A stretch of DNA of 64,000 nucleotides from NCBI GenBank assembly GCA_043767845.1, contig JAYUFZ010000018.1:3312-67311 (forward strand). Direction: 5' to 3'. The translations under genes and the position numbers were made by a program. The DNA comes from a bacterium. Lineage in GTDB: Bacteria > Patescibacteriota > Saccharimonadia > UBA4664 > JBBRNT01. Positions within the stretch are counted from its first letter, which is position 1; every line of letters starts with the position of its first letter. Below the pieces are notes generated by a model that was given only the letters and a program-made list of their open reading frames with translations, was not told where the DNA came from and made no database searches. Of the stretch, positions 29,962 to 47,185 are shown in pieces.

Positions 29962-31074
29962 CTACTCGAATTCCCGGTAAATAGCTAATGTCTGCTCGGC
30001 CATCCGCCGCCAGGAAAACAGCTTAATATGCTCCGGGCCAGCCAGCCGTAATCGCTCGAGCTGCTTTTTATCGTCCAAAACTGCGCAGATCTTAGCCGCC
30101 ATATCGGCTGTGTCCAGCGGGTCGAAGTAGACAGCGGCTTCGCCACAAACTTCCGGTAGGCAGCTGGCGTGAGCGGCGAGTACCGGCGTGCCTTGAGACA
30201 TGGCCTCCAGTGCCGGCAAGCCAAAGCCCTCGGACAAAGAGGGGAATACAAAGGCTTTGGCATGCTTGTAAAGCCACACCAGCTCGCTATCACTCACGAA
30301 GCCGGCAAAGATCACCTTATTACTAAGACCTAGTCGCTGGGCCTCTAGCTGGAGCTGCCCCTGGAAATAGTCAGCCTTACCAGTTAGCACTAGCTCAAGG
30401 TTAGGATTACTGGCCTGGGCCAGCTTAAAAGCTTTCAATAGTCGCCCAATATTCTTATTCGGATAGTAATTGCCTACATATAGTAGGTAGTCACCCCCTA
30501 CGGCAAAAGCTGGCTTTTTTGGTGAAGCAAAGAGGGGATCGACAGATAGGAGAGTGGTCGTGACTTTGCTCGGGCTGATTTTAAATGGACTATGCTCGTA
30601 ACGGGATATGATTTGCTGCCGCACGAACTCGGTATCAGTGATTAGCCGGGAACGCATAATTGCGCAACGTAGCACCAACCGCATGCCCCAATATTTCAGC
30701 TCGTATAATATTTTCTTAGCACCCTCGCCCTGGTTGGTTTTGTAACTCACTAATGTCAGATCGTGAATAGTCGCTACCCGCCTGCCAAAGTAGAGTGGGG
30801 GAGCGGTAAAGTGTGGGAAGTGGACGAGGTCGGGTCGCAGGCGGTAAAGCGTGATGGGTAGTAAGATCTGCTCGGCTAGGCTGTAGGGCCTTATGTCGGC
30901 TAGCTGCTTCGTAAAGTTGGCCGCTTTCGGCTGCCAGCCCTCGAAATCCTTGGCCAGTAACAGAACGATATATTGATTGCTATGATCAATGTCTTGAAGC
31001 TGGTCAAGCAAATTCCAAGTATAGCGGCCAATGCCGGTCCAGGTAATCATGCGGGCGTCGATGATTATTTTCAT
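29962..31074 (-). CDS. glycosyltransferase family 4
   Basis: C-terminal 'FPSLSEGFGLPALEAMSQGTPVLAAHASCLPEV'. Confidence 0.8.
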   Translation of the reverse strand: MKIIIDARMITWTGIGRYTWNLLDQLQDIDHSNQYIVLLLAKDFEGWQPKAANFTKQLADIRPYSLAEQILLPITLYRLRPDLVHFPHFTAPPLYFGRRVATIHDLTLVSYKTNQGEGAKKILYELKYWGMRLVLRCAIMRSRLITDTEFVRQQIISRYEHSPFKISPSKVTTTLLSVDPLFASPKKPAFAVGGDYLLYVGNYYPNKNIGRLLKAFKLAQASNPNLELVLTGKADYFQGQLQLEAQRLGLSNKVIFAGFVSDSELVWLYKHAKAFVFPSLSEGFGLPALEAMSQGTPVLAAHASCLPEVCGEAAVYFDPLDTADMAAKICAVLDDKKQLERLRLAGPEHIKLFSWRRMAEQTLAIYREFE

Positions 31075-33716
31075 GCTGTATTTATCCGAGCCGCACTGGG
31101 TACTAAGGAGACGTTCTTAAATTCGGGGGCGAACAAGGCTAATCCTAGCAGCGTCCAGAAGACCATATTTAAACTGAAATCACTCGACCAGGTGTGTAAA
31201 AACATAGCATTGAAAGTGAGGCCAACTCCGAGCCAGGCCACCACCGGAGTGCCTTCCCTGAAGGCTGTTCGAATAGCAATAAAAATAAATGCCATATAGA
31301 GAGCTAAACCAATAAGACCCAGTTCTTGGGTGATTTGAATATACCAATTCTCGCTAATCACAACCTCTTCGGAGGTTGCAAAAGTAACTGGTCCGGCCGT
31401 TCCAATGCCACTACCAATTATTAAGTCTGGGGCGCGACGCTTGACCGTCGACACAACATTTGAAGAGGTAATGTCGGCATGCTCATTTGTCGATTCTCCA
31501 TGGAGCAAGACCATTCTGAGACTCTCGTGATACTGTAGCACACCAATGCTTGAGCCTATTAGGATGGAAAAACCAAGTACCAGTACTGGCCAGTTAACTT
31601 GCTTTTTACGAGCATCCGAGATGAACAATCCAAGTCCCAAAACTGCCGTCGCGAGCCAGGCACTACGTGCTTGGGTAAGCCCCAAAAATATGCCCACGGG
31701 TATGACGGCAATGAACCGTCGTTTTCCAGAGAAGAATGTGAGCGCCAGGGCGGCAGCAATAGCCAGTAGGCTACCAAAAGGGTTGGGTCCAGGAGTGAAG
31801 GAACGGATCTGTGGTATCTTGCCTACAAAATGACGCAGCAGATCTTGGTGCGCCCAAACCCGGAAACTGTGGTTAAAGAAGAATTCAATTGTTCCAAAGA
31901 ACATCAGAAAACCAAATAAGCCGACGATGGTTAACAGTATGCGCTTGACCTCTTTGCGCTTGGGTACGACAATCCAGATGGTTAGGAAGCCCAGAAGGCC
32001 GCTAAAGTCCGCCCGTAACCCACGGAAACCCTGCCACGTTGGCGCCTGGCCAATGAATATCGAGAGCGTAGCCCAGGCTAGTATCACAAGGCACAGCACT
32101 ATTACTAAAGGCAGCTTTCCACGACCTCGAAGCTCTGGGTAATAGGTCGCAACGGCCAAGCCAAGACAGGCAATCGGGACAAGCTCCAGGCCATACTTAA
32201 AGGCGCTCAATGCCAAGTGGGGGATATGGCCAGCCATAATAATGTAGGCAAACTCCCGGAGCGGTGTGAATACAAGGCTGATGGCTAGTAAGGCCAAGAT
32301 GGTGGCTCGGAGCTTGGTTCTCATAGTATTGATTCTAGGTAATCGCAGCCAAACATACAAACCGCGAAGCCGCGACTTGCCAGTATGCTTGCCTGTAGCT
32401 AGTCCTGCAAGCAGCGCCATACAAATCCAGATATGGGTCAGGAAGAAGCCGGTAAAACTTTGATATTGGATAATGATCGCTACCAGCGCTGCCAATAGCC
32501 CGGCTACCCAGGCTCGTTTTATACCTTCGGCTTCTTGTAGCGTCCGATAGGCAGAGATGCCAATGCTAAGCACAAAGCCAGACAACAACATGAAGCCCAC
32601 TACGCCTAGCTCGGCCAACAACTCCCAAAAAGCATTATTGGCGGTTGGCCAGTTCTCTGTGGTGAGTGCTGCGGGATAGTTTAAAAGCGCTGGTCCAAAT
32701 CCCCCTATCCCCACCCCAAAAAGCGGGTGTTTCAGGAATATAGCCCGAGCCTGTCCTTGGGTTTGGTGCCGTTCGGTGAAGGAGCCAGTGTGGGTGAGCT
32801 GGGTGGTGAAGAGCCTTAAAAAAATTACCGGGCCCTTGGTGGCATTGCCATAGTATAGCTTTGACGCACCGGCCGTCGCAGAAAGTGTGAGAATGAGTAT
32901 TAGTAAGACTGTTAGGCCGAACTTACGTAGCGTGGATGAGGAGAGTTTTCGGACATCCCTGTGCAGGAGAGCAATCAGCACTAGGCAACCAGCCAGCGCG
33001 GCAAATATGCCACCCCGCGACATTGTAAGAGCAAGGTTTAAGAGTAAAAGGCCGATAACTGGCATGAGCAGGCGTGGGGCTTTTTTGCCATGCACTATGA
33101 TAATACTCAAGCCGACAAGAACCGGGATCAATAGATAGTTGGCGTAGTAGAGTGGTTCAAGGGCAGTAGCTTGGATGCGTGGGAAACCAAAGACTGCTTT
33201 GGTATAAGCCGCTCTTAGCCCTGTAGCACTGGCAGGCAAGCCGAGGATATCACCAACGTATTGGTAGATGCCAAAGCAGGCTACAGCACCAGCAGATCCA
33301 AAGAGCGCTAGCTGGACGGTCCGCAGCCGCTCGGTTGTTATGAGCTGTGAGACAGCGGCAAATAGGACAAAAAGGCCGAGGCCAATAAGGTAGTTGCGGT
33401 TGAGCTGGCTATAGCGTAGTTGCCAGAGCGGAACTAATGACACCAGAGCGGTGCCGGCGAGGTATTTGTAACTGGGCTGATAACTGAACTTCTCGCGGCC
33501 AGTGAGCAGCCGCGCCATATAGGTGAGCACCAAGGCGGCACCGGCAACCTGCACAATGCGTACCACGGGGTGGCCGGTATGGGGGAGTAATATGTAGGAG
33601 CCGATCCGTTCAAATGGGAGCAATAAAACCACTGTAAAGAGACCCCAACTGGGGCGGTGGTAGAAGGTGGCAGCTAGAAAAACTGTGGCTGCAAGAGTCA
33701 GTAGGAGAGTAGTCAC
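31071..33716 (-). CDS. large polytopic membrane protein, O-antigen polymerase/ligase (Wzy)-like
   Basis: 881 aa with more than 20 hydrophobic segments. Overlaps the upstream GT by 4 nt. Sits in a glycan locus with a Wzx-like flippase. Confidence 0.4.
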   Translation of the reverse strand: MTTLLLTLAATVFLAATFYHRPSWGLFTVVLLLPFERIGSYILLPHTGHPVVRIVQVAGAALVLTYMARLLTGREKFSYQPSYKYLAGTALVSLVPLWQLRYSQLNRNYLIGLGLFVLFAAVSQLITTERLRTVQLALFGSAGAVACFGIYQYVGDILGLPASATGLRAAYTKAVFGFPRIQATALEPLYYANYLLIPVLVGLSIIIVHGKKAPRLLMPVIGLLLLNLALTMSRGGIFAALAGCLVLIALLHRDVRKLSSSTLRKFGLTVLLILILTLSATAGASKLYYGNATKGPVIFLRLFTTQLTHTGSFTERHQTQGQARAIFLKHPLFGVGIGGFGPALLNYPAALTTENWPTANNAFWELLAELGVVGFMLLSGFVLSIGISAYRTLQEAEGIKRAWVAGLLAALVAIIIQYQSFTGFFLTHIWICMALLAGLATGKHTGKSRLRGLYVWLRLPRINTMRTKLRATILALLAISLVFTPLREFAYIIMAGHIPHLALSAFKYGLELVPIACLGLAVATYYPELRGRGKLPLVIVLCLVILAWATLSIFIGQAPTWQGFRGLRADFSGLLGFLTIWIVVPKRKEVKRILLTIVGLFGFLMFFGTIEFFFNHSFRVWAHQDLLRHFVGKIPQIRSFTPGPNPFGSLLAIAAALALTFFSGKRRFIAVIPVGIFLGLTQARSAWLATAVLGLGLFISDARKKQVNWPVLVLGFSILIGSSIGVLQYHESLRMVLLHGESTNEHADITSSNVVSTVKRRAPDLIIGSGIGTAGPVTFATSEEVVISENWYIQITQELGLIGLALYMAFIFIAIRTAFREGTPVVAWLGVGLTFNAMFLHTWSSDFSLNMVFWTLLGLALFAPEFKNVSLVPSAARINTA

Positions 33717-33801
33717 AGCTCCATTGTACCAGCCCTAGCTGTTTGCGCTGAATTTGACTTTGAATCTCTACATGCGACAATTGGAGGAGTATTAATCAGG
33801 A

Positions 33802-34812
33802 GTGAGTATGGCAAATACAGCCCCCAAACGAGCGCTTATCACCGGGATTACTGGCCAGGACGGTAGCCATCTCGCTGAGCTACTCTTGAGCAAGAATTAT
33901 GAGGTATTCGGCCTGATACGAGGCCAACACAACCCCCGCCGCCGCAAAGTGGAGGAAGACTTTTCCAAAGTCACGCTCATAGAGGCCGATCTCTGCGATA
34001 GCGCCTCGCTGGTTCGGGCCGTCGAGGTCTCCCAGCCCGATGAAGTCTACAACCTAGCGGCCGTCAGCTTGCCGGGGTATTCCTTTAAGGTCCCCGAACT
34101 TACTGGCGAGGTGACCGGGCTCGGCGTGCTCCGAATGTTGGAGGCCGTCCGCCTATCTGGCAAAAAGGATACGCGTTTCTATCAAGCCTCAACCTCGGAG
34201 ATGTTTGGCGGCATGGACTATAACCGGCCCGAGGGTGGTTACGTGGAGACCTCGTCCTTCCATCCCCGCAGTCCCTATGGCGTAGCAAAGGTCTATGGCC
34301 ACTGGAGCGCTCGCAACTACCGTGATAGCTATGGAATGTTTGTGAGTTGCGGTATTTTGTTCAATCACGAAGGACCCCGTCGTGGTCTAGAGTTTGTGAC
34401 CCGCAAGATTAGTAATGCTGCCGCTCGAATCAAGCTAGGACTGCAAGATGAGTTGGTACTCGGTAGCCTGGACCCTAAGCGCGATTGGGGTTATGCCGGG
34501 GATTATGTCCGCGGAATGTGGCAGATGCTGCAGCAGGACGAGCCGGATGATTTTATATTGGCCACCGGAGAGACCCACTCTATCCGAGAGTTTTTGGATC
34601 TATCCTTTACTGAAGCCGGACTTGGTGATTGGAAGCCCTATGTCCGTCAGGCCCAGGAATTTATGCGCCCGGCAGAGGTGAATCTGCTGCTTGGTAATCC
34701 AGCAAAGGCCGAAAAAGTTTTGGGCTGGAAGCGCGAAGTTGATTTTCCGGATCTAGTCAAAATGATGGTCGAGAACGACCTCAAAATCGAAGCAGCCAAA
34801 AAGCAAGCCTAG
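33802..34812 (+). CDS. gmd: GDP-mannose 4,6-dehydratase
   Basis: 'ALITGITGQDGSHLAELLLSKNYEVFGLIRG', 'YQASTSEMFG', 'SPYGVAKVYGHW' (catalytic YxxxK), 'GILFNHEGPRRG'. Confidence 0.85.
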   Translation: MSMANTAPKRALITGITGQDGSHLAELLLSKNYEVFGLIRGQHNPRRRKVEEDFSKVTLIEADLCDSASLVRAVEVSQPDEVYNLAAVSLPGYSFKVPELTGEVTGLGVLRMLEAVRLSGKKDTRFYQASTSEMFGGMDYNRPEGGYVETSSFHPRSPYGVAKVYGHWSARNYRDSYGMFVSCGILFNHEGPRRGLEFVTRKISNAAARIKLGLQDELVLGSLDPKRDWGYAGDYVRGMWQMLQQDEPDDFILATGETHSIREFLDLSFTEAGLGDWKPYVRQAQEFMRPAEVNLLLGNPAKAEKVLGWKREVDFPDLVKMMVENDLKIEAAKKQA

Positions 34813-35915
34813 GCTGTTAGTAGCTTCTGTAGTTCGGCAGCGCTTTTCGCCCAGGAGAACTTTGCAACTTGCCCATCGCCTTTATGTCGGAGGCTGTCGC
34901 GTAGCTTGGTGTTTGTGAGTATCGCAGAAAGCACCCCTGCTATAGCCTTGGTACCAAGCGGGTCGAAGGTCAGAGCGGCCTCCCCGGTCACTTCTGGGAG
35001 CGAGGTGGCGTTTGATGAGGCTACGGGGGTGTGGGAGGCCATTGCCTCCAAGACTGGCAAGCCAAAGCCTTCATAGGTACTCGGAAATACGAAAGCTGTG
35101 GCTAGGGCGTAGACTCGCGGTAAGTCGGCATCATCAATAAAACCAGTCAGGCGGATGTGCGAATCGCCATCCAGTGAAACCTCTTGGTTGTGCCATTTCG
35201 CGCCAGCTATAATCAGCGGATAGCCATTGCGCAAAGCTGGTGCAAGCAAGCGGTGGGCGGCAATAGCGCTGACTACATTCTTGCGTGGCTCGCTACCACC
35301 AATCGTCAGTACAAATTGCTTGGGTAGATTGTAGCGTTTGACTGTAGTTTCCAGTTCGGCTTTGCTGTGGGTTACGAAAAATTGCGGGTCAGCCTGCAGG
35401 TAGATGACCTGGATTTTGCTAGCCGGGATAGCGAGTTGCCGTACAGCGATATCCTTACTGTACCGGGAGATGGCCGTAAATTCATCGGCAACTTTTACCG
35501 AGCGCTGCATAATGTGGGTCACGATCAGTCGCCGCAAAGTGAACTTGGTGCTGCCGAAGTAGAGGTCAGGCTTTTCTACCGGAATCATATCGAGCAAAGA
35601 AACAATAGTTCGGCAGGTTTTGAAGCCAGGGCTGCTGAGATTATGGAATGAGTAAAAGACGTCGGCCTTCAGTCTAAGTAGGATGAATGGTAGCCTGAAT
35701 GTTAGCCAGATTGCCCGCTTACTGGCGGTTACTTTGTATACTTCGAAGTTAGGAGCGCTAATACCTGACGTAATGAAGCTATGATTAGCGTTGACCATAA
35801 TAATGTACTTGTTGGCAGTGTCGAGCGCCTGTAACTCGCGCAACATATTATAAGCCAGCCGGTCGCTGCCGGTGATATGGGGGGCTGCCTGGTAGGCGTC
35901 GATGATGATGGTCAT
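34809..35915 (-). CDS. glycosyltransferase family 4
   Basis: 'FVFPSTYEGFGLPVLEAMASHTPVASSNATSLPEV'. Confidence 0.8.
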   Translation of the reverse strand: MTIIIDAYQAAPHITGSDRLAYNMLRELQALDTANKYIIMVNANHSFITSGISAPNFEVYKVTASKRAIWLTFRLPFILLRLKADVFYSFHNLSSPGFKTCRTIVSLLDMIPVEKPDLYFGSTKFTLRRLIVTHIMQRSVKVADEFTAISRYSKDIAVRQLAIPASKIQVIYLQADPQFFVTHSKAELETTVKRYNLPKQFVLTIGGSEPRKNVVSAIAAHRLLAPALRNGYPLIIAGAKWHNQEVSLDGDSHIRLTGFIDDADLPRVYALATAFVFPSTYEGFGLPVLEAMASHTPVASSNATSLPEVTGEAALTFDPLGTKAIAGVLSAILTNTKLRDSLRHKGDGQVAKFSWAKSAAELQKLLTA

Positions 35916-35927
35916 AGCTGGTTTGTC

Positions 35928-37001
35928 CTAGGTTAATTGCTCAAGCATATCCTGAGCTATCTTGTCCCACTCGTACATATCGGCCAGAGCCTGGAGCTCA
36001 CTTTTGTGAGTGTTCCGAAAGCTTGCTTTGAGCACTTGAGTTATGGCTTTGGCCAGAGCTGGGGGATTTTTTTCGGGAGTCATCGTAATTGCCGAACTGT
36101 CTAGTAAGTTGGGCGGGGTTTGGGGTCCGAATGTGGTGATAACCGGACAGAGATTAACAATCGCAGCCAGGGTACTCGTACTGTTGGCTCTTACTCCACC
36201 GTGAAAAGGTGACACCGAGCAGATTGCATACTGCAAATATTGGCTTACCACTGCCTCCGGGCAAACGCCAACCCAGTGTACTCGATCTTCAATGCCCAAT
36301 TTCTTGGCTAGATCTTGGTAGCGCAGATCGACTCGACCGATTAGAGCCAGCTGCAAGCCCTCAGTTCTGGTTAGTGCTTCGAGAATATCGCCTAAGCCTT
36401 TCTTATCCTGCTGTAATCCAAAGTAGACGATATAGGGTCCGATGATAGGTCTTTCTTTTGCAGGCACATATCCAATTGCAGAGCCCATTCTTGATAGACT
36501 ACCATTGACCACATTGTCGAGCCCCATCTCACTAAGGTCGCTCTGATTAAAGACTATTACCCGGTTACTCCAGCGCAGTGTTTTCACTAAGGCCTGCCTA
36601 TTGGCCGCAAGAGTCTGTTGGTACTCATGTATTATCACGCAGACCCGGATCCAAGGGAATAGAATGCGTATCAGTATTGGGCCCCAAACTGTAAGGTTTG
36701 CGTCGGCGGCCGGCAGTACAGCTGGATACTGGAAAAGTATCTGCGTCGGTCGAAAGCGTAAGATTGGCCAGATAAGCTGATAGAAATAGAGCACATCCCA
36801 GCGTCTGATAATAGGCTTCACCTCAAGATTCTTGCTTTTGTAGGGGCTAGTGTCGAATTGCGCGGAGGTTAAGACGAGGCATTGGTGACCGATATTTGAA
36901 AAGGCTGTCATAAGTTTCTGGCCGTAGTCGCCCACTCCGCAAACCACAGGTGGCCAGGAGCTATTAACAAGCATGATTCGTTTAGGTTGGAATTTCGCCA
37001 T
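35928..37001 (-). CDS. glycosyltransferase (GT4-like N-terminal domain)
   Basis: 'IMLVNSSWPPVVCGVGDYGQKLMTAFSNIGHQCLVLT' resembles Glyco_trans_4-like N-domains. Lies within the GT cluster. Confidence 0.5.
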   Translation of the reverse strand: MAKFQPKRIMLVNSSWPPVVCGVGDYGQKLMTAFSNIGHQCLVLTSAQFDTSPYKSKNLEVKPIIRRWDVLYFYQLIWPILRFRPTQILFQYPAVLPAADANLTVWGPILIRILFPWIRVCVIIHEYQQTLAANRQALVKTLRWSNRVIVFNQSDLSEMGLDNVVNGSLSRMGSAIGYVPAKERPIIGPYIVYFGLQQDKKGLGDILEALTRTEGLQLALIGRVDLRYQDLAKKLGIEDRVHWVGVCPEAVVSQYLQYAICSVSPFHGGVRANSTSTLAAIVNLCPVITTFGPQTPPNLLDSSAITMTPEKNPPALAKAITQVLKASFRNTHKSELQALADMYEWDKIAQDMLEQLT

Positions 37002-38939: not shown

Positions 38940-39621
38940 AGTAGAAGTACCAACTCTTACCGAAATGCTGGCTCATAAGACCTAGCCCGCGGTTGAGCAC
39001 CGGTGTCTTAGCCCAAGTTTTGAAGAAACTATTTAGAACGCGGTCTACGCCACTATGATTGAGTATCTTGCCAGTATGATCAGACTTACTGCGTAGCAGG
39101 GCGTGGAAGAACCAAGATATAGCTGGTACGAAGTTCTTGGTTTCGATCTTTAAGACTCGATATCCTGCGGCTTCAATAAGCTCCTTGAGCTGGCGCTTGG
39201 AAAATATTTTGACGTGGGTAGCGTTACTTGCATAACCTGGATGTAGACGCCAATAAACCCTCTCGGTGTAGCCGGTGGGTACGCCTATACACAATACCCC
39301 GCCTGGTTTGAGCACTCGATTAACCTCCTGTAGCAGTTGCTCGGTAGGCTTGATGTGCTCAATCACCTCTAGTAAGATGGCGCCGTCGAAAGAATTTGCC
39401 TTAAAAGGCATGTTTGTTGCATCACCTTCAATAATAGTGATGCCTTTAGCTGCTGCGTTGTTATTGAAGTCTTCGACAAGGTTTGGGTCAATTTCAATGG
39501 CCGTAATTGTCGCTCCCTTAGCCTTAAGGGCAATAGAATTGTGACCTTCAGCCGAGCCTATGTCTAGAAGATGAAGGCCCTTGCTTGCCGGAAAGATTAT
39601 TGGATTAATATTCTCAATCAT
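38923..39621 (-). CDS. class I SAM-dependent methyltransferase
   Basis: 'LLDIGSAEGHNS' (motif I), 'VLKPGGVLCIGVP'. Confidence 0.7.
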   Translation of the reverse strand: MIENINPIIFPASKGLHLLDIGSAEGHNSIALKAKGATITAIEIDPNLVEDFNNNAAAKGITIIEGDATNMPFKANSFDGAILLEVIEHIKPTEQLLQEVNRVLKPGGVLCIGVPTGYTERVYWRLHPGYASNATHVKIFSKRQLKELIEAAGYRVLKIETKNFVPAISWFFHALLRSKSDHTGKILNHSGVDRVLNSFFKTWAKTPVLNRGLGLMSQHFGKSWYFYCEKIA

Positions 39622-40411
39622 TTCGTACTCGCTCCCAGTCCTTATATTGTTGGTCTATTGAGGGCTTCTGCTGTAGCTCCCAGAGCCTGGCGTAAACAAC
39701 AAACCAAGACAATGGACGATATAGCATCTCGATTACCCCGGGCGCTCCATCACGGTAGATGCGTTGTTTTATAGCCAACTTATAAAACTCCCGCAGCATA
39801 ACTCCGACTAGTGTCCTACGTGTTACGGGCGGATGGCCAGTCTGGAGCATCTCATGAGCCTGGATATTGGCGTACTGCATGGTTTTGGGTAGATTATCCA
39901 TGACTGAGCGGTGCGAGAAATGAGCTACGGGTAGGTTTATGAAGCCAGTTTTTGGAGTACTCACTCTAAAAACCAGCTGCTCATGTATATCGCCCTCATA
40001 GCGCGCTGCCTCGTGTAGAAATAGCCGGGTGTGGATTTCTTGGCTGTCGCAATAAACCATCTTGTGTCCGTAGTAGTAGTTCTGCCATGGCATAGTATAA
40101 GCATCATAATCTCCTTCTAGCGCCGTGCGGATGGCCTGGGCTAATGACTTAGAGATTCGTTCATCTGCATCAAGGATAAAAACCCAATCACCACTACAGG
40201 CATCTATAAGCTTGTTCTTGGCCACCGAGAATCCTTTGGCAGTATCTATAGTAATCACCTTGGCACCCGATTTTGTTGCTAAAGCCTGGGTCATATCGGT
40301 ACTAGTAGAATCAATGCCTACGACTATCTCATCTGCCCATCTGGCGCTTTCTAGTGCGCCGCCGATCATAAACTGTTCATTTTTGGCGAGTATCGCGATA
40401 GATAGTTTCAT
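39614..40411 (-). CDS. glycosyltransferase family 2
   Basis: 'KLSIAILAKNEQFMIGGALES..DEIVVGIDSTSTD', 'FILDADE'. Confidence 0.7.
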   Translation of the reverse strand: MKLSIAILAKNEQFMIGGALESARWADEIVVGIDSTSTDMTQALATKSGAKVITIDTAKGFSVAKNKLIDACSGDWVFILDADERISKSLAQAIRTALEGDYDAYTMPWQNYYYGHKMVYCDSQEIHTRLFLHEAARYEGDIHEQLVFRVSTPKTGFINLPVAHFSHRSVMDNLPKTMQYANIQAHEMLQTGHPPVTRRTLVGVMLREFYKLAIKQRIYRDGAPGVIEMLYRPLSWFVVYARLWELQQKPSIDQQYKDWERVRND

Positions 40412-41862
40412 GAAGCCCTCACCAGTTGTTTTATCTCATCAATATTAAACTGCTTGGTAGTAATTGCCAAGGCTGCATAGCTAACTACCCCGATAGCAAC
40501 ACAGAGCACAAGTACGAGGATATTGCTATAGCCTCTAGTGACTAAAAAATCTCTAGCCAAGTATACGGCTATACCCATCGCAATAGCATTTAATAAGGCT
40601 GGTAGGTGTAGCTTCAGGCTGTCGGGCGCGACAAGCCATTTTCTATAATAATAGCGCAGTAGAAAAAGCTGTAGCCCTTCGGTTAGCACAACTGAAGTCG
40701 CAGCACCGGCCAGGCCCCATAGGGGTATGGCGACTAAATTGAGGATTATATTTGTACTAATAGTGATATAGGTAAGCCTCAGCAGACGTTTTTGGTAGTT
40801 AGCTGCAATTAAGCTACTGGAATAAACTGCATTGAAATAAATTAGGTAGTTACCAAGCATTAGGATCGACATCGGCAGTGCTGCTCCTATGAACGCTTTA
40901 CCCCCTAGTAATATCGAGATATTCGATGAAAGGATAATGACGCCTACAGTTATGGGAGCCGCTGCCATACCAAGTAGGCGTGTCGACTTGATGGTTAAGT
41001 CGTGCAGCTTTGCTGGGTCTTCTACGACCCGACACATGAGAGGATAGACTGCCCCCATGAAGAATATTGGAAAAGACATGGTTAGCTCGATCACTTTATA
41101 GGCGATGCCGTAGATGCCGACTTGGGCGCTCGTCAGGAATAGTGATATTAAAAAACTGTCTGCCCGAAAGTAGATAGTATTTAAGATGCTAGCTACAGCA
41201 AGAGGTACAGTTAACCCGATAATATAGCGTAGGTACCGCGGGTCGTAACGTATAACCGGGCGGCTGGCTGCGAGTCCAAGACACATGTCGCTCGTAAAGT
41301 TTACTGTTGCTCCGGCTAGCGTCGCCAGAATTAATCCATGGAAACCAAGGTCCCTGGAGATGACGTAGTAAGTAAGTGCGATAGTAGTGATACGCCCCAA
41401 TATATCGCCAATAACGATCAGATCATTACGCAGACGGGCGACAAGTGTTGAAGTGACGGTGCTTTGAAGGGTCGCCAGGATGAGTGTAATACTCAGGTAG
41501 GCGATCGCTTGGCGTGTATAGGCTTGACCACTCATATGGTACAGTAGGCTGCCTGATGCAGCTGCTACTATAGCAATGAAAATAGAGACTAGAACTCGTA
41601 AGAATAGAATACTGCCAATTATTTCCGCCGCTGGCCGTTTATTCTGGGCTAATTCACGAATTGTAATATTGCTAATGCCAGCATCGGTCAGGGTGGCAAA
41701 CAGGCCTATAAAAATTGCGGCTGTAGCGAGCTGGCCATAATTCGTAACACCAAGGTAGCGAGTAGACAGGCTGATCACTAGAATACCTAGCCCAGATACC
41801 ACAATGCGACCAACGATTTGGGCAACAGAATTATAGGCTACACGCTGGCTATTAGTCGCCAT
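40408..41862 (-). CDS. polysaccharide flippase (Wzx/MOP superfamily)
   Basis: 484 aa, ~14 TM segments, N-terminal 'NSVAQIVGRIVVSGLGILVISLSTRYLGVTNYGQLATA' typical of oligosaccharide flippases. Confidence 0.65.
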   Translation of the reverse strand: MATNSQRVAYNSVAQIVGRIVVSGLGILVISLSTRYLGVTNYGQLATAAIFIGLFATLTDAGISNITIRELAQNKRPAAEIIGSILFLRVLVSIFIAIVAAASGSLLYHMSGQAYTRQAIAYLSITLILATLQSTVTSTLVARLRNDLIVIGDILGRITTIALTYYVISRDLGFHGLILATLAGATVNFTSDMCLGLAASRPVIRYDPRYLRYIIGLTVPLAVASILNTIYFRADSFLISLFLTSAQVGIYGIAYKVIELTMSFPIFFMGAVYPLMCRVVEDPAKLHDLTIKSTRLLGMAAAPITVGVIILSSNISILLGGKAFIGAALPMSILMLGNYLIYFNAVYSSSLIAANYQKRLLRLTYITISTNIILNLVAIPLWGLAGAATSVVLTEGLQLFLLRYYYRKWLVAPDSLKLHLPALLNAIAMGIAVYLARDFLVTRGYSNILVLVLCVAIGVVSYAALAITTKQFNIDEIKQLVRAS

Positions 41863-41938
41863 AGGTTGATAACAAGACTAAATAAGGCACATTCATATAG
41901 ACAGTTTAACAGAGTCCGGGCCGTTTTTCTGGGGCCGG

Positions 41939-42871
41939 CTAGCGGCTTTTCTTGCTATCCAGATCTATGAGTGGCAGCTTATCAAGAATATTCCAAGCCT
42001 CTGTATCCGTCATGTCGATAAACTCTCCGGCATCATTCTTACTTTCGCGATGCTTGCCGCGTACATAACCTTCTTCGGGGGTCAGCTTCTTAAGTGTAGC
42101 CGGCAAGAGATCGTTTCGCACGAAGAAAGCATTGAGGCCCTGACTATTGCAGCCAATAAAAGAGTATCCCTTGGTTTCGGCTAGCTGGCACAGACCAGCC
42201 AGCGAGGCTCCGTAGTAGATTAGCGGATTACCGGGTTTGGTGCGTACAAAAGTGGATTGATAGGGTATCGTTACCGCTCGCTTGTTCCCATAACGGTAGT
42301 TATACTCAGTAATTACTATGGCAGGATTAAGGTCGTCGATAGCTTGCCATATCCAGTAATCGTTACCGTCAATATCGATAGACAGTATACCGATTTCCCC
42401 GACCATTCCGTTATCGGCAAGTAGCTGGTTGATATTATCCTTTGTGATAAATGAGCAGATTGCCTTGAGTCCGTAGCCCCAGAAAACACTGTCGGATTTA
42501 ATCTTGTTTATGTTACCGTGGTCTCCATCAATTACCAGGCCATCCCAACGATCGTTCAGTAACAAAAAACGAGTATTTGCTTCTTTGTAGTCCTCAACAC
42601 CGAACTCGACAAAAGACTTATTCTTGATTGGTACTTCATGTATTAGCCGCTGAATTATACCGTCTTCTCCCCACTGCGAAAAAGCTCGAAATTCTGACAG
42701 CTGTACGTTCGGCCCATCGAGGCCTGCTAGCTGGCGATTTTCGATGCGACCCAAGGCTTCGCGTATTAATTCTAGCTGTCGATCGAGCTGTATCTGCTCA
42801 ATAGTGTCGGTAATCTTCTGCGATCCACTTAACCGACGTATAGTCCTGAGTAATTTTGATTTAAAGGGCAT
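41939..42871 (-). CDS. FkbM-family methyltransferase
   Basis: 'FVEFGVEDYKEANTRFL' and 'ILSIDIDGNDYWIWQAIDDLNPAIVITEYN' match the FkbM (Methyltransf_21) pattern. Confidence 0.5.
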   Translation of the reverse strand: MPFKSKLLRTIRRLSGSQKITDTIEQIQLDRQLELIREALGRIENRQLAGLDGPNVQLSEFRAFSQWGEDGIIQRLIHEVPIKNKSFVEFGVEDYKEANTRFLLLNDRWDGLVIDGDHGNINKIKSDSVFWGYGLKAICSFITKDNINQLLADNGMVGEIGILSIDIDGNDYWIWQAIDDLNPAIVITEYNYRYGNKRAVTIPYQSTFVRTKPGNPLIYYGASLAGLCQLAETKGYSFIGCNSQGLNAFFVRNDLLPATLKKLTPEEGYVRGKHRESKNDAGEFIDMTDTEAWNILDKLPLIDLDSKKSR

Positions 42872-42934
42872 TACAATACATCCTCGTTAGACTTTCAATT
42901 AGTATAAGGCATAAGTCCCTAATCTTGATATGGA

Positions 42935-45451
42935 CTAACGGAGGATTACCTGCAAGAAAGTGCCAGGGTCATTCATCGTGCTACCGCCCTCTACGATAGG
43001 CTGGTAATACTCTATATAGGTACCATTCGGTAGTCCAGGCGAGCGAGTATACAGGAAGCTGAATTGGGCCGATTCACCGGGTGCTACGATATGGGGATTG
43101 ATTGAATAGGCGCTACCATCGGCTTTATAGACACTCGCAAACTGGCCTGTCGGCCTATTTTGGTCTGGGTTCCAGGTAGATCCGAGGTTATCGCGCCGAT
43201 TAATTGGACGGCTAGTAGCTAGGTGGACGGGTCTCTTGCCTGCCCCGGGGGCGCTGATATCATCATACCAAGGAATGTTGCCGTTGTTCTTATAGGTAAT
43301 GAAGCCGATCGCCGTGCTACCTGCCGTACCTAGGACAGGATAGTTAGATTGAGTTACGTATTGCGAGCTGTAGTAGCCTGCAATGAGCGTCACATCCAAG
43401 AAAGTACCCGGATCGTTCATGAGGCTACCTCCCTCGACTATTGGCCTAAACCACTCCCGGGAGACGGTGGTAATGGGTACCGGGTCGGAGGCAATACTGA
43501 AGCTGAAGCGGGCTGATTCACCTGGTAGCACGACGTGAGGGTTGGCTCCATAAGGATTGCCATGAGAGTCGAAGACGGTATTGAAGTTGTAGGCCGCTCG
43601 GTTCTGGTCGCCACCCCAACGCATCCCTACGGCGCTTCGGCGGTTGATTGGGTTAGCGGTTGCTAAGTGGACGGGCCTACTGCCGGCCGCCGCCGAGCTT
43701 AGGCCTAGGTCGTCGTACCAGGGCATGTTACCGGTGTTGGTATACTCGATATATCCAGTGGCGACTTCATTGCCAGATAGTACGCTGGGATAGCCAGACT
43801 GCCCATGATAGGCTGACATCCAGGTTGGCGCGCCGACACTTACATCCAAGAATGTACCAGAATCATTGATGCTCGAGCCGTTGTCCGGATACAGCTGGAA
43901 CCACTCACGATAGTTGCCCGCCGAGATATTGCCTGGGGCATCGAAATTGAAGCCTAGCTTCACTATCTGGCCAGGTACGGCCTGGTGTTGGCTGGCCGCC
44001 AGAGTAGTGCCATCGGCCTCATAGACAGCTGTAAAGCCGGTGGCCGGGATGTTGCGGCCAGTCCCCCAATTGACTCCAAACTGGGAGCTGCGATCCTTGG
44101 CACGGCTGGTACCCAGGTAGACGTGAGTTTGGCCGGAAATAGTATTGTCGTACCAATTTAGGTTGCCGGTGTTCTTGAAGGTGAAGTAAGCTGGCGCGCT
44201 TGCCCCGGGAAGCAGTGACGGGTAGCTCGATTGGCTGACATAGGTCGAATTATACGTTGGTGTCACGCTCACATCCAGGAACGTGCCTGGGTCGTTCATG
44301 GTCGAACCACCTTCTAGGATTGGCTGGAAGTATTCCCGGTAGGTGCCCGGTACTAGGCTTATGGGGGCCGTGAGGGTGAAACTAAATTTCACGGATTCGG
44401 CTGGCTGGACGGCGTGCGGATTGACGCTGTAGGCGCTGCCATCGGATTTATAGACCGTCGCAAAGACCATTGCTGGACGGTTTTGGTCACGGTTCCAGCC
44501 CGTTCCTAGCCGGCTGGTACGGTTAATAGGCTGGCCGGTTGAGAGGTGGACAGGCAGGGCACTCACGCCAGCTGCAGAAACATCATCGTACCAGGGCTGG
44601 TTGCCGGCATTTTGATAGGTCAAATATACAGTGGTCGTGCCGCCAGCTGTAAGCGTTGGATACGAAGACTGGCCTTTATAGGCCGACAGATAATTACCCG
44701 CCCAAGTCGTCCCGAACCAACTATTAAAGAAGCTTATGAAGTTATAATTGCCATAGTAGTAGGTACCGCTAACAAGCGTGTAAGCGCTGTCTGGGCGGTG
44801 GGGGGTGTAATTGTAGAGCGAGCCGGTGGCGCAGGTTTGCAAGAACGTATCGCGGCCATCTACCGGAGTCGTGTTACCTCTTGCCCACTTGCTATTTACC
44901 GACCAGCTGGGGAAGGAGGTGGTATTACCACAGTCACGGTCTTGGCCAACCTTGAGTAATGTCGCTCCTAGGTGGACTTGGTTGTAAAAACCGTAATACT
45001 GGGCATCGCAAACACTCTGAGTCTCGGGGCAGCCGTAGCCCATGGCTGATTTATATTGGCTGGGATAGGGCCAGGTATCAGTCACTAGGCTTTGTTCTTT
45101 TTGCAGAGTCACCAGTATGACCTGCGGGTTTAGCCCAGCAGCCATTGCTTCGTCATATATTAAGCGAGCTGCCGACTTGCTAGTGGTTGGGTCAATGTAG
45201 TCCTTCAAACAGACGTAGGGCACTGTGGCTCCGCCATGATAAGAATCGCAAGTCGGAACCTTGCCATTGAGAAAGTTCTGGATATCGGCGACCGACATTG
45301 TGGCGGTGTTGGCGAACACAAAATCGTCGATAATCCGTGAATTGTAGGCTGGGTCGACAATCGGAGTGTTGGCATAGCCCATGGCGGCCTGCGCACCGAA
45401 TAGGCCGGCGGCGATAATAAGGTATTTAAGGATTCGTATAGCTTGTTTCAT
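42935..45451 (-). CDS. secreted cell-surface protein: N-terminal Cys-containing domain + four ~150-aa tandem repeats
   Basis: Signal peptide 'LIIAAGLFGAQAAMG'. Repeats each carry 'Y.GQS.YP.L..G...Y..Y.N.GN.PWYDD...RPVHLAT..PINR.S..G..W..DQNR....F..VY...G..Y..NPH.V.PGES..FSF......G.Y.E.FQPI.EGGS.MNDPGTFLDV'. Confidence 0.6.
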   Translation of the reverse strand: MKQAIRILKYLIIAAGLFGAQAAMGYANTPIVDPAYNSRIIDDFVFANTATMSVADIQNFLNGKVPTCDSYHGGATVPYVCLKDYIDPTTSKSAARLIYDEAMAAGLNPQVILVTLQKEQSLVTDTWPYPSQYKSAMGYGCPETQSVCDAQYYGFYNQVHLGATLLKVGQDRDCGNTTSFPSWSVNSKWARGNTTPVDGRDTFLQTCATGSLYNYTPHRPDSAYTLVSGTYYYGNYNFISFFNSWFGTTWAGNYLSAYKGQSSYPTLTAGGTTTVYLTYQNAGNQPWYDDVSAAGVSALPVHLSTGQPINRTSRLGTGWNRDQNRPAMVFATVYKSDGSAYSVNPHAVQPAESVKFSFTLTAPISLVPGTYREYFQPILEGGSTMNDPGTFLDVSVTPTYNSTYVSQSSYPSLLPGASAPAYFTFKNTGNLNWYDNTISGQTHVYLGTSRAKDRSSQFGVNWGTGRNIPATGFTAVYEADGTTLAASQHQAVPGQIVKLGFNFDAPGNISAGNYREWFQLYPDNGSSINDSGTFLDVSVGAPTWMSAYHGQSGYPSVLSGNEVATGYIEYTNTGNMPWYDDLGLSSAAAGSRPVHLATANPINRRSAVGMRWGGDQNRAAYNFNTVFDSHGNPYGANPHVVLPGESARFSFSIASDPVPITTVSREWFRPIVEGGSLMNDPGTFLDVTLIAGYYSSQYVTQSNYPVLGTAGSTAIGFITYKNNGNIPWYDDISAPGAGKRPVHLATSRPINRRDNLGSTWNPDQNRPTGQFASVYKADGSAYSINPHIVAPGESAQFSFLYTRSPGLPNGTYIEYYQPIVEGGSTMNDPGTFLQVILR
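42938..44710 (-). repeat. four in-frame tandem ~450-nt coding repeats inside the surface-protein gene
   Basis: Recurring DNA strings (e.g. 'catccaggaacgtgcctgggtcgttcatgg' ~44270, 'catccaagaaagtacccggatcgttcatgag' ~43395, 'catccaagaatgtaccagaatcattgatgc' ~43850) and the protein-level repeats. Confidence 0.6.
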
Positions 45452-45453
45452 GC

Positions 45454-46017
45454 TTAGAAATTCACCGCTACATCGGCGACATTTATTTCTGAGGAGTCGG
45501 TTGGGCTAATACTAAAGACCTGTAGCTCTCCGCTGTCGCCGGCCTTGGCCTGGCTGGTAAAAGCTAACTCAAAAGAAAAATTCTGGGTAATAGTTGGATC
45601 ACCGGTGAGCGCAAAAATACCCTCCCCCAGCTGGCCTGATGACACTGCCTTGACGCGCCAATGCAGTTTGCCATCGACGACCTTCGCTTGGCCGGTAACT
45701 TTGGTGCCAGAAGTAACAGTCGCGCCGTTTGAGGGGCTCAGGATAGTGACGAGTCCAGAGGCGCTCGACTGCGGTGGAGCAGGAGTGGGAGTGGGGCTTG
45801 AGCTAATTGGCAGGGGCGTGATCACGGTTGTCGGCGTGCCAGGTTCGTCAGCTTTCGGTCGGTAGGCGGTATCTTGAGGGGTGGGGGTGGTTGACTTGCT
45901 GAGACCGCCTCGAGTATTGACCTTGGTATAGCTAGCATATAAAACCCCACCTGCGGCGACGAGTCCCAGGATGAGAACGATCCAATTTTTACGGTCACTG
46001 GCAAATGACATACACAC
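45454..46017 (-). CDS. membrane-anchored small protein with Pro/Thr-rich linker and Ig-like beta domain
   Basis: TM 'WIVLILGLVAAGGVLYA', linker 'TPTPQD..PGTPTTVITPLPISSSPTPTPAPPQSS', then a ~100-aa beta-rich domain. Start uncertain (MCMSFASD vs MSFASD). Confidence 0.4.
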   Translation of the reverse strand: MCMSFASDRKNWIVLILGLVAAGGVLYASYTKVNTRGGLSKSTTPTPQDTAYRPKADEPGTPTTVITPLPISSSPTPTPAPPQSSASGLVTILSPSNGATVTSGTKVTGQAKVVDGKLHWRVKAVSSGQLGEGIFALTGDPTITQNFSFELAFTSQAKAGDSGELQVFSISPTDSSEINVADVAVNF

Positions 46018-46106
46018 CCTCGTATCTAGCTGATTATACCATAGGCGGCGGGTAGGGCGGCTGGGTGCGGTGCCCAGTTCGGTGAATGGTTTGCTACAAT
46101 AGGCAT

Positions 46107-47147
46107 ATGATTATCTGCATTATCGCCGGAGGGTCGGGTACTAGGTTGTGGCCGTTGTCGCAGCCAAACTACCCCAAGCACTTACTGCGCCTGACTGGCA
46201 AAACTTCGATGCTCCAGAACACTTTCGCCCGGGCCAAGGGCCTAACCGACGACATCTATATCATTACCGAGGCTTCGCACGCCGCCGAAGTGCGCGAACA
46301 ATTGCCGGATCTTGAGGTAAGCCATGTTTTAGTCGAACCGGGGCGGCGGGGGACGGCCTCCTGCATCGCTTTGGCGCTGGCCATCATTAGTCGTGACCAG
46401 CCCGACGAAACAGTCGTATTCTTGCACGCCGACCACCACATTATAGATACCGAGGGTTTTGGGACTACCGTACGAGCCGCCGCCCAGTCCTCTGAGCTTG
46501 ATAGCCGGATTGCACTCATAGGCCTAGAACCTACCCATGCCGCCACCGGCTTTGGCTATATCAAAAGTGGTCGGGAAGTCCGCAATGTTGATGGCATCAG
46601 TGTCCGCACCGCTGAGCGTTTTGTCGAGAAGCCAAGTTTCGAAGTAGCTGAAGGCTATCTGGCAGAGGGTAATTATCTATGGAACTTAGGATTGTTTGCC
46701 GCTCCTGTGGCTGTCTTTGTTCGCGCCATGCGCCGTCATGCGCCAGACTTGTTCGCAGGTTTTGAGCGCTTGCGGCAGAGTGAAACTGAGGAGGATCTGG
46801 CGAGCGCCTATCTCGATCTCGCCAATCAGGCCATAGACTACGCCCTGATGGAAAAGATTGATGATTTGCTGGTGGTGCCAGGCCGCTTTGACTGGGCCGA
46901 TATCGGCTCCTACTTCGACCTCCATAAGATTCTCCAGGGCGTTGATAGTAATGCTTTGTCTGGCGACATCTACCAGATCGACTGTAGCGACAGTATGATT
47001 CATGGCTCCGGCAAGCCCATCGTGGCCATTGGGCTGTCGGGTATCGTAGTAGTCGACACCCCCGACGGCCTGCTGGTCTGCGCCAAGGACCAATCGCAGC
47101 TAGTCGGTGACATGGTCAAGCAATTGCAGGCCAAAAAAGCCGCCTAG
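46107..47147 (+). CDS. manC: mannose-1-phosphate guanylyltransferase (GDP-mannose pyrophosphorylase)
   Basis: 'IIAGGSGTRLWPLSQPNYPKHLL' is the nucleotidyl-transferase signature. Start at ATG 46107 preferred over 46086. Confidence 0.7.
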   Translation: MIICIIAGGSGTRLWPLSQPNYPKHLLRLTGKTSMLQNTFARAKGLTDDIYIITEASHAAEVREQLPDLEVSHVLVEPGRRGTASCIALALAIISRDQPDETVVFLHADHHIIDTEGFGTTVRAAAQSSELDSRIALIGLEPTHAATGFGYIKSGREVRNVDGISVRTAERFVEKPSFEVAEGYLAEGNYLWNLGLFAAPVAVFVRAMRRHAPDLFAGFERLRQSETEEDLASAYLDLANQAIDYALMEKIDDLLVVPGRFDWADIGSYFDLHKILQGVDSNALSGDIYQIDCSDSMIHGSGKPIVAIGLSGIVVVDTPDGLLVCAKDQSQLVGDMVKQLQAKKAA

Positions 47148-47185
47148 CTACGGTTATTGAGCCTATTCATATATAATGAATAGCA

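Follow-up and report, generated by a model that had tools for sequence, protein, structure and literature searches.

The common polysaccharide antigen of Pseudomonas aeruginosa is a D-rhamnan specified by a locus with the gene order rmd–gmd–wbpW–wzm–wzt–wbpX/Y/Z. In Escherichia coli, the gmd–fcl pair of the colanic acid cluster leads to GDP-L-fucose. The GMD/RMD pathway has been described (PMC9415975), as have the S-layer glycosylation (slg) clusters of Geobacillus stearothermophilus (WsaA–F/WsaP) and Aneurinibacillus thermoaerophilus L420-91, the glycan of the latter containing D-rhamnose (PMC2943079). The slg clusters build a monoderm-type envelope glycan with rhamnose-type sugars, an O-methyl cap, and export by Wzm/Wzt, and the Wzy_C protein WsaB transfers the glycan to protein. 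Genomes that have Gmd alone have already been discussed, as have bifunctional GMDs (bioRxiv 10.1101/854612; PMC3584063; PMC9415975).

The locus described here lies in a 64-kb stretch of DNA, the whole of which we refer to as the window, from a Saccharimonadia (Patescibacteria) bacterium. It resembles the D-rhamnan locus of P. aeruginosa in its provision for GDP-mannose supply (ManC here, WbpW there), in its short-subtype Gmd (54% identical to the P. aeruginosa enzyme, 1RPN), and in its GT4 transferases, and the canonical Saccharimonadia locus shares, in addition, rmd and wzm/wzt with a Wzt_C domain. Unlike the P. aeruginosa locus, however, the one in the window has neither rmd nor an ABC transporter; it has instead a doubled Wzy_C protein and a flippase of the Wzx type. 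The acceptor of its glycan must also be a different one, because the organism lacks an outer membrane and lipopolysaccharide. Like the slg clusters, it is a monoderm-type envelope-glycan cluster with a Wzy_C protein, and the gene for a secreted repeat protein adjoins it on the same strand; in contrast to them, the window has no WsaP-like priming enzyme, and the locus is of the Wzx type and has no rmd. As in the colanic acid pair, Gmd would carry out the first committed step from GDP-mannose, but the window encodes no homologue of Fcl, and in this clade the reductases linked to Gmd are of the rmd type. Finally, the Gmd of the window belongs to the same family, and has the same catalytic residues, as the bifunctional GMDs of PBCV-1, P. 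aeruginosa, and A. thermoaerophilus. In other respects this is a polysaccharide cluster of conventional type, and we regard the absence of rmd as mildly curious, not as the mark of a new type of system.

A Conserved Left Arm and an Exchangeable Cassette

By comparison with approximately 160 gmd loci we identified the region as a replication-origin-proximal envelope-glycan locus of Saccharimonadia, an assignment that we hold, jointly with the identity of its Gmd, with high confidence. The order recF–dnaN–dnaA/yidC–jag–GT4a–(Wzy_C)–gmd is conserved in 13 loci, and two further genomes have the jag/GT4–gmd–rmd core. The locus thus consists of a conserved left arm (GT4a, a membrane protein of the Wzy_C family, and gmd) and an exchangeable right-hand cassette. 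The first cassette gene in most relatives is rmd, followed by wzm/wzt (with a Wzt_C domain), glycosyltransferases, and methyltransferases, a set that, by analogy, would make a D-rhamnose-based polymer exported by the ABC transporter. Here it contains five glycosyltransferases, two methyltransferase-type genes, and a Wzx flippase, has no rmd, and is paired with a doubled Wzy_C protein. Its GC content also differs, being 0.46–0.49 over 36–42 kb as compared with 0.52–0.57 in the flanks. An independent Logan assembly (SRR23617225, a contig of 14.9 kb) is 100% identical to the window over positions 33572–48444, and the junction between gmd and the first cassette gene, GT4b, is therefore not an artefact; misassembly at that point is ruled out.

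The leftmost gene of the arm, GT4a (29962–31074, minus strand), encodes a GT4 glycosyltransferase (Glycos_transf_1, 120 bits) whose orthologues, at 38%–52% identity, occupy the same position (jag–GT4a–...–gmd) in all of the Saccharimonadia loci examined. Next to it is the gene for an 881-aa polytopic membrane protein (31071–33716, minus strand) with about 20 predicted hydrophobic segments and two Wzy_C-like halves: residues 222–378 match Wzy_C with an E value of 1.9e-16, and the C-terminal half alone matches it with an E value of 7.9e-4. The halves are weakly colinear with each other, and the 436-aa Wzy_C protein of a related locus, L012, matches both. A sequence search of the PDB returned no match to the 881-aa protein. 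These matches would place it in the superfamily of O-antigen ligases, polymerases, and O-oligosaccharyltransferases, among which the Wzy_C domain does not discriminate. Because conservation of the N-terminal half extends to relatives with an ABC transporter, in which no polymerase is required, the comparison favors a role for that half as a ligase.

All of the cassette genes from GT4b to wzx are on the minus strand. GT4b (34809–35915; Glycos_transf_1, 83 bits) stands where relatives have rmd; in two of these, L019 and L020, the order is gmd–rmd–GT4b-like, as compared with gmd–GT4b here. GT4c (35928–37001; 348 aa as called on the Logan contig) is a weak GT4-like glycosyltransferase (Glyco_trans_1_4, 39 bits; Glycos_transf_1, 35 bits), and GT4d (37878–38939) is a clear one (Glycos_transf_1, 78 bits). 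Between these two is GT2a (36982–37887; Glycos_transf_2), which resembles rhamnosyltransferases, scoring 76 bits, under the cut-off, with the rhamnosyltransferase model TIGR01556. A second GT2 gene, GT2b (39614–40411; Glycos_transf_2, 50 bits), has homologues in L019 and L020 at 28%–31% identity. The remaining products are a 232-aa class I SAM-dependent methyltransferase (38923–39621; Methyltransf_11, 83 bits; Methyltransf_23, 78 bits) and a Wzx-type flippase of the MOP family (40408–41862; Polysacc_synt_3, 94 bits; the MOP flippase model NF007773, 58 bits). Together with gmd, manC, the Wzy_C protein, and the neighborhood conserved in relatives, these genes uphold the original prediction of a surface-glycan locus that includes a SAM methyltransferase, a Wzx flippase, and an 881-aa Wzy-like protein. 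Its count of seven glycosyltransferases (four GT4, two GT2, and one GT4-like) has to be lowered, since we find six, namely three clear GT4 enzymes, one weak GT4-like enzyme, and two GT2 enzymes.

Profile scans of the open reading frames of the 64-kb window revealed no priming phosphoglycosyltransferase (of the Bac_transf/WbaP or WecA/MraY type), no manA or manB (PMI or PMM) domain, and no chain-length regulator (Wzz). Assembly would be of the Wzx/Wzy type, in that a MOP-family flippase is present, with Wzz and a priming enzyme not found in the window. The locus is therefore not self-contained, and the absence of a reductase is on that account less anomalous than it appears.

An Intact gmd Gene

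The gmd gene is located at 33802–34812 on the plus strand, with a likely ATG start at 33808 that yields a protein of 334 aa. The product matches PF16363 (GDP_Man_Dehyd in Pfam) at 394 bits over the entire profile (positions 1–332 of 332) and TIGR01472 (gmd) at 377.4 bits, as compared with 74 bits for dTDP-glucose dehydratase and 52 bits for CDP-glucose dehydratase. The TIGR01472 score is below the curated NCBIfam equivalog cut-off of 415 bits, a shortfall that we treat as an effect of length or subtype and not as evidence against function, the protein being of the short form found in P. aeruginosa and Aquifex. Its closest solved homologue is P. aeruginosa GMD (1RPN; E value 5.6e-106, 54% identity), and the next (2Z1M, 1N7G, and 1DB3) are likewise all GMDs; 11 solved GMDs score 287–357 bits against it, as compared with 108 bits for the RMD structure 2PK3. 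In an alignment with the window, E. coli Gmd is 46% identical. Family scores and solved homologues rule out both another NDP-sugar dehydratase and an Rmd, and so the assignment to gmd that had been made originally stands, including against dTDP-glucose dehydratase, the alternative that had been proposed as a check.

The protein has the glycine-rich dinucleotide-binding motif GITGQDG at residues 15–21, and the catalytic Thr/Tyr/Lys triad and the glutamate typical of dehydratase active sites, represented by T131 and E133 (in the motif STSE) and Y159 and K163 (in YGVAK), are all present and align with those of P. aeruginosa GMD. It departs from consensus at four of 120 columns that are conserved at 95% or more, and since its relatives do the same, we see no sign of decay; as judged from its sequence, Gmd looks functional. 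A promoter-like site is present at 33754–33781, in the 85-bp divergent spacer upstream of the gene, as a match to consensus only; the numbers of promoters and terminators returned by the scan were near chance, and we take the site as a hint.

Could gmd be a leftover of cassette exchange that has not yet decayed, in a locus whose glycan uses GDP-mannose (hence manC) and contains no 6-deoxyhexose? The geometry of the locus is suggestive in this respect, in that rmd belongs to the cassette side of the junction and gmd to the conserved side, and the cassette differs in GC content and export type. GT4 enzymes, moreover, can take GDP-mannose directly. The open reading frame, the intact catalytic residues, and the normal conservation nevertheless argue against a leftover, as does the same configuration in two other distant loci (see below), and an unused Gmd would drain GDP-mannose to a dead-end keto sugar, against which selection would be expected. 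We therefore consider this explanation quite improbable.

No Reductase Partner in the Window

In 15 related Saccharimonadia genomes, gmd is directly followed by a gene for an rmd-type reductase, usually together with wzm/wzt. The missing partner can thus be named from relatives, by sequence, as an rmd-type GDP-4-keto-6-deoxy-D-mannose reductase: the best solved homologues of the relatives' protein are 2PK3 (E value 1e-48) and 6X3B, its name at JGI is GDP-4-dehydro-6-deoxy-D-mannose reductase, and the Gmd of the window nests within a clade whose members are linked to rmd-type and not fcl-type reductases. Accordingly, one would expect a D-rhamnose-like sugar and not fucose or perosamine. The rmd gene is absent here and from two other distant loci, L012 and L092, and in each of these three loci gmd is intact.

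Pfam and NCBIfam scans of open reading frames of at least 150 aa, with the exception of a few overlapping longer ones, detected no SDR, Fcl, Rmd, or DegT-type protein in the 64-kb window other than Gmd, and no other product in the window matched NF047922 or the Epimerase family. Searches of the 64 kb with tblastn gave the same result: 12 Rmd sequences, and likewise five SDRs from the gene modules of the 310-aa protein family described below, found only gmd itself, so that no hidden or degraded reductase emerged, and E. coli Fcl gave no significant match (best E value 0.83). No aminotransferase partner was found in the 64 kb, either among open reading frames or in six-frame searches, and no SDR-like sequence was found at the ends of the window. 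Nor is there room for a remnant of rmd after gmd, because the stop codons of gmd and GT4b overlap. The original prediction had seen no fcl/wcaG, rmd, or perosamine synthase and hence no consumer of GDP-4-keto-6-deoxymannose, and it is correct on both points for the 64 kb.

A possible way out is that Gmd is bifunctional in vivo and, once the 4,6-dehydration is complete, goes on to form GDP-D-rhamnose by an NAD(P)H-dependent reduction; such an activity, if present, would explain a gmd gene without rmd. The three separate Saccharimonadia loci that have an intact gmd and no rmd are in keeping with this explanation, and the closest solved homologue, at 54% identity, is from P. aeruginosa. Mutants of P. 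aeruginosa that lack rmd are reported to make no D-rhamnan, however, and organisms that have a bifunctional GMD nevertheless retain rmd. We know of no sequence signature of GMD bifunctionality, and no residue separates the three rmd-less Gmds from 23 rmd-linked ones. A second (reductase) activity has been reported for three characterized GMDs, those of P. aeruginosa, A. thermoaerophilus, and PBCV-1 (PMC3584063; PMC9415975; bioRxiv 10.1101/854612), but it is not general, the BceN protein of Burkholderia being monofunctional (PMC3584063). On this evidence we regard bifunctionality as somewhat unlikely, although it ranks second among the explanations considered, after a reductase encoded outside the window.

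No gene was found that is unique to the three rmd-less loci and might substitute for rmd; the one candidate common to them is a GT2 gene, GT2a, homologues of which are also present in two rmd-containing loci. Among the gmd loci sampled in genomes, approximately one-fifth show no partner gene within 10 kb of gmd, an arrangement that is common in other lineages. Finally, a profile search for an Rmd from the same sample returned 7,776 equally good matches, and the two of these that were examined came from other genomes, in which gmd–rmd is canonical.

A Putative Methyltransferase and Its Neighbors

Next to the flippase gene in the window is a gene (41939–42871, minus strand) for a 310-aa protein of a widespread uncharacterized family. 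The original prediction called it an FkbM methyltransferase. No Pfam or NCBIfam model matched it, even at an E value of 5 or less, and this includes Methyltransf_21 (PF05050), for which one of 120 listed homologues has a precomputed match; with hhalign, the protein matches an FkbM protein weakly (E value 8e-4, probability 25%). Its AlphaFold model (pLDDT 83, pTM 0.83) has 44 matches in the PDB with E values of 1e-3 or less, all of those listed being SAM methyltransferases. The predicted fold is that of a class I SAM methyltransferase, and judging from the model the protein is probably a SAM methyltransferase that is remotely FkbM-like. Thus, the methyltransferase part of the earlier assignment stands as a predicted fold, and the FkbM part is reduced to the hhalign match and the PF05050 match of the one homologue.

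The family has more than 7,000 homologues, with 50%–60% identity in cyanobacteria, Nitrospirota, and Betaproteobacteria; the gene here is 57% identical to cyanobacterial genes. In five of five other genomes from these three groups it adjoins an extended SDR and a GT4 gene, neither of which is present here. Thus, with the 310-aa gene lacking its usual SDR and gmd lacking rmd, two positions usually held by an SDR are empty in a single locus.

These observations bear on a third explanation, in which the keto sugar is consumed within the locus by something other than an SDR reductase: the 310-aa protein might C-methylate the 4-keto sugar, or a glycosyltransferase might transfer the keto sugar directly. 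The top PDB matches to the model (TM 0.35–0.41) include KijD1 and TcaB9, which are sugar C3-methyltransferases that act on NDP-4-keto sugars, and the contexts of the family in the five other genomes (SDR and GT4) are of a deoxysugar type. The structural matches, however, do not extend beyond the common Rossmann core (TM 0.3–0.4), and O-methyltransferases score equally; the sequence signal points toward the FkbM-type family, whose members are O-methyltransferases; and known C-methylation pathways end in a 4-ketoreductase, which is missing here. We judge such a consumer to be very improbable.

Located 63 bp upstream of the 310-aa gene, on the strand of the glycan genes and separated from them by short gaps, is the gene for the large repeat surface protein that had been noted originally. 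It encodes an 838-aa secreted protein (42935–45451, minus strand) in which a signal peptide and a domain of about 250 aa at the N terminus precede four Ig-like repeats, each about 145 aa long and alignable with the others; the protein matches N_BRCA1_IG with an E value of 6e-7. Its position and signal peptide are compatible with glycosylation of this protein, or of an S-layer, by the products of the cluster. It is followed in the window by a gene (45454–46017, minus strand) for a 187-aa membrane-anchored protein with a Gmad2 Ig-like domain (42 bits) and then by manC (46107–47147, plus strand; 346 aa as called on the Logan contig), which, as predicted, encodes a mannose-1-phosphate guanylyltransferase (NTP_transferase, 132 bits, and a ManC beta-helix). 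ManC has no PMI domain and matches TIGR01479 over profile positions 2–349 of 467.

Discussion

The simplest, and in our view the best, explanation for the absent reductase is that a 4-ketoreductase is encoded elsewhere in the genome, outside the contig; we advance it tentatively and at slightly less than an even chance. In this scheme, ManC would provide GDP-mannose, Gmd would convert it to GDP-4-keto-6-deoxy-D-mannose, and the 4-ketoreductase from elsewhere would complete a 6-deoxyhexose, D-rhamnose being the likeliest; the priming transferase, manA, and manB would likewise be encoded elsewhere. The glycosyltransferases would then assemble a lipid-linked repeat unit, partly O-methylated, Wzx would flip it, and the two Wzy_C halves would polymerize the glycan, ligate it to an acceptor in the envelope, or both. 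A reductase in trans is supported by the dependence of the locus on other genes located elsewhere (for the primer, PMI/PMM, and Wzz) and by the frequency, in other lineages, of gmd genes with no partner within 10 kb.

Against a reductase in trans, the adjacency of gmd and rmd is strongly conserved in Saccharimonadia (15 genomes with it and three loci without), and the SDR that accompanies the 310-aa gene in five of five other genomes is also gone. Outright loss of rmd from a genome of about 1 Mb is at least as plausible as its relocation, and the recurrence of its absence in L012 and L092 could mean that Gmd alone is sufficient. It is unlikely, in our estimation, that the rmd-less lineages (this genome, L012, and L092) still run the 6-deoxyhexose branch either with Gmd as a sufficient dehydratase-reductase or with the 310-aa family diverting the 4-keto sugar to a methylated or branched 6-deoxyhexose.

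Saccharibacteria are obligate epibionts, whose surface touches the host cell. Variation in that surface is probably governed in large measure by this origin-adjacent, class-wide glycan locus with its swappable cassette, and host or phage specificity possibly is as well. Meanwhile, the rmd-less variants are natural test cases for whether Gmd alone can supply GDP-D-rhamnose in vivo.

A gmd Gene without a Partner in the Window

The gene content of the surface-glycan locus (29962–47147) was derived from an ORF list and from Pfam and NCBIfam scans. Its left arm consists of genes for the glycosyltransferase GT4a (29962–31074, minus strand), an 881-residue Wzy_C membrane protein (31071–33716, minus strand), and Gmd (33802–34812, plus strand). 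Next comes a single close-packed run of minus-strand genes (34809–42871) encoding GT4b (34809–35915), the weakly GT4-like GT4c (35928–37001), GT2a (36982–37887), GT4d (37878–38939), a Methyltransf_11 methyltransferase (38923–39621), GT2b (39614–40411), a MOP/Wzx flippase (40408–41862), and a 310-residue protein (41939–42871). The locus closes with genes for an 838-residue repeat protein (42935–45451, minus strand) and a Gmad2-domain protein (45454–46017, minus strand) and with manC (46107–47147, plus strand). The original prediction, a gmd locus without a visible partner, was a real observation and its gene calls were mostly right, but it counted seven glycosyltransferases where we find six. 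No priming phosphoglycosyltransferase, PMI, PMM, or chain-length regulator was found within the 64 kb, and hence the locus would be unable to work alone.

Judged by its sequence matches, the gmd assignment is genuine. The product matches the entire Pfam GDP_Man_Dehyd model (394 bits) and scores 377 bits against TIGR01472 versus 74 against the dTDP-glucose dehydratase model, the enzyme for which it might have been mistaken; the sole blemish is that 377 lies below the NCBI equivalog cut-off of 415. Its eleven top matches among solved structures are all GMDs, led by that of P. aeruginosa (1RPN; E = 5.6e-106, 54% identity), whereas the RMD structure 2PK3 gives only 108 bits. The nucleotide-binding motif and residues T131, E133, Y159, and K163 are all present.

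Pfam and NCBIfam scans of nearly all ORFs of 150 residues or more in the 64-kb window revealed no epimerase-family, Fcl, Rmd, or DegT-type match save gmd itself. Likewise, tblastn searches of the window with twelve Rmd proteins of relatives and E. coli Fcl returned gmd only, as did searches with five further SDRs, and no SDR-like gene is present at the window ends. Because gmd and GT4b overlap at their stop codons, no room is left for a reductase remnant. Misassembly at the gmd/GT4b junction and at the junction between the 310-residue protein and Wzx is ruled out by an independent Logan assembly (run SRR23617225), which is 100% identical over 33572–48444. Within these 64 kb, it is correct that nothing obviously consumes the keto sugar. 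This is a weak anomaly; about one in five of 80 gmd loci from genomes have neither an Rmd-like nor an Fcl-like gene within 10 kb.

Homologues of the 838-residue secreted repeat protein (31% identity) lie near gmd in two unrelated metagenomic contigs (L147, 448–2814; L158, 2035–4170), which hints at a recurrent link between this type of protein and GDP-mannose-derived glycans. No family has been assigned to the N-terminal domain (about 250 residues) of the repeat protein.

A Conserved Origin-Proximal Locus Whose Usual Partner Gene Is rmd

Immediately upstream of the glycan locus (22531–29952) are recF, dnaN, and dnaA (minus strand), followed by an rnpA-like gene, yidC, jag, and mnmE (plus strand), and cumulative GC skew is lowest at about 26–28 kb. 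The locus therefore adjoins the replication origin. We scanned genome and metagenome contigs for Gmd and obtained 160 loci. The order dnaA/yidC–jag–GT4a–(Wzy_C protein)–gmd repeats in about a dozen Saccharimonadia or Patescibacteria assemblies, with identities to the window of 38–52% for GT4a, 63–72% for Gmd, and up to 65% for DnaN; this is a conserved origin-proximal glycan locus of Saccharimonadia.

Directly after gmd, 13 loci sharing the neighborhood and two genomes found later carry a gene for an extended SDR of about 309 residues. Among solved structures it is closest to the GDP-6-deoxy-D-lyxo-4-hexulose reductases 2PK3 (E = 1e-48) and 6X3B, and JGI labels members of the family GDP-4-dehydro-6-deoxy-D-mannose reductase. 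Usually wzm and a wzt with a Wzt_C domain follow. Thus, the canonical locus is a gmd–rmd–wzm–wzt cluster, resembling the D-rhamnan locus of P. aeruginosa and the slg clusters for S-layer glycans of Gram-positive bacteria, in which a Wzy_C protein passes the completed chain to protein (PMC2943079). The window Gmd falls among rmd-linked Gmds in a neighbor-joining tree, and the missing partner is rmd.

Variants without rmd recur: the gene is absent from the available sequence in the window, in L092, and in L012 (a 414-kb contig with an ABC transporter, an FkbM protein, and two other methyltransferases), a count that leaves out three more loci whose sequence ends too early. Foremost among the explanations we place a reductase whose gene lies elsewhere in the genome, which could plausibly cover the missing step. 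Second, and rather doubtful, is a Gmd that performs the reduction itself. Bifunctional GMDs are known from P. aeruginosa, A. thermoaerophilus, and PBCV-1 (PMC3584063, PMC9415975), and a published survey noted that they could explain genomes with Gmd and without Rmd (bioRxiv 10.1101/854612); however, BceN is monofunctional (PMC3584063), and no residue sets rmd-less Gmds apart from rmd-linked ones.

Gmds of MAGs labeled Actinomycetota (L004, L006–L008, and L013) fall inside the Saccharimonadia clade and reach 74% identity with the window Gmd. Actinobacteria are the usual hosts of Saccharibacteria, and the placement suggests either gene transfer between the two or mislabeled bins. Separately, in six metagenomic loci (L115, L150, L154, L158, L159, and L160) a second Gmd-like paralogue (39–44% identical to Gmd; about 320 residues where complete) replaces the Rmd-type gene directly downstream of gmd and could be a Gmd-derived reductase.

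Exchange of the Right-Hand Cassette

The window has a Wzx flippase where relatives have wzm/wzt, and GC content falls to 0.46–0.49 over 36–42 kb. Because the junction falls between the two genes in relatives, with gmd belonging to the conserved part and rmd to the cassette, the absence of rmd is accounted for by replacement of the cassette. Gmd departs from consensus at four of the 120 columns conserved at ≥95% among 157 Gmds compared, as do its relatives, and thus is without sign of decay; that gmd is itself a leftover of the exchange, third in our order, we consider improbable.

The Wzy_C protein of the window is doubled. Its second half matches Wzy_C weakly, and both halves align with the single-domain protein of L012. 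Because the N-terminal module is also kept in relatives with ABC-transporter export, for which no polymerase is needed, we infer a ligase or oligosaccharyltransferase role for it. The polymerase that a Wzx pathway requires could be supplied by the second module.

Other Parts of the Window

A type IV secretion/conjugation-like gene set of a kind common in Patescibacteria spans 5329–22270. It encodes a T4SS pilin (5329–5904), two large proteins without family match (6038–8617 and 8517–12398), a PrgI-family protein (12535–13356), a VirB4/TraG-like ATPase (14419–16269), a 997-residue protein with a VanY domain, and a 615-residue M23 peptidase. Two low-GC stretches, 8001–10000 (0.45) and 52001–54000 (0.445; window mean about 0.52), may also derive from horizontal acquisition. 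Shortly past the glycan locus lie genes for a LexA repressor (49841–50461) and a cyclopropane-fatty-acyl-phospholipid synthase-like methyltransferase (50683–51942), the latter unexpected in a reduced epibiont genome.

A Methyltransferase-like Protein Family

The 310-residue protein, originally called an FkbM methyltransferase, has no Pfam or NCBIfam match even at E ≤ 5, and a profile of 20 family members found nothing significant among PDB sequences. Aligned with an FkbM protein, that profile gave a weak hhalign match (E = 8e-4, probability 25%) in the SQxGED...NT...W.G..ID region. AlphaFold models the protein with confidence (pLDDT 83). Every one of the best PDB matches to this model is a class I SAM methyltransferase, with the sugar C3-methyltransferase KijD1 in first place, but the TM-scores are only 0.3–0.4. 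The family, which appears to be uncharacterized, numbers more than 7,000 proteins, lacks a Pfam model, and shows 55–65% identity across phyla.

The gene has counterparts in cyanobacteria, Nitrospirota, and Betaproteobacteria that share 55–60% identity with it. In all five other genomes examined (a cyanobacterium, a Nitrospiraceae MAG, Oxalicibacterium, and two metagenome genomes) it lies within a glycan cluster beside genes for an extended SDR of about 306 residues and a GT4 of about 390 residues, often after a hexapeptide acyltransferase gene (L168, 8001–11060; L170, 8001–10959; L171, 8001–10988; L173, 6001–9131; L172, 6001–10653); four of the five have the direct order 310-residue protein, SDR, GT4. 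Neither partner is in the window. With rmd also missing, two usual SDR positions are therefore vacant in the glycan locus. Last in our order, and very improbable, is an unconventional consumer encoded inside the locus.

More useful than the keto-sugar gap itself are the identity of the locus, the naming of its missing partner as rmd, and the recurrence of rmd-less variants.
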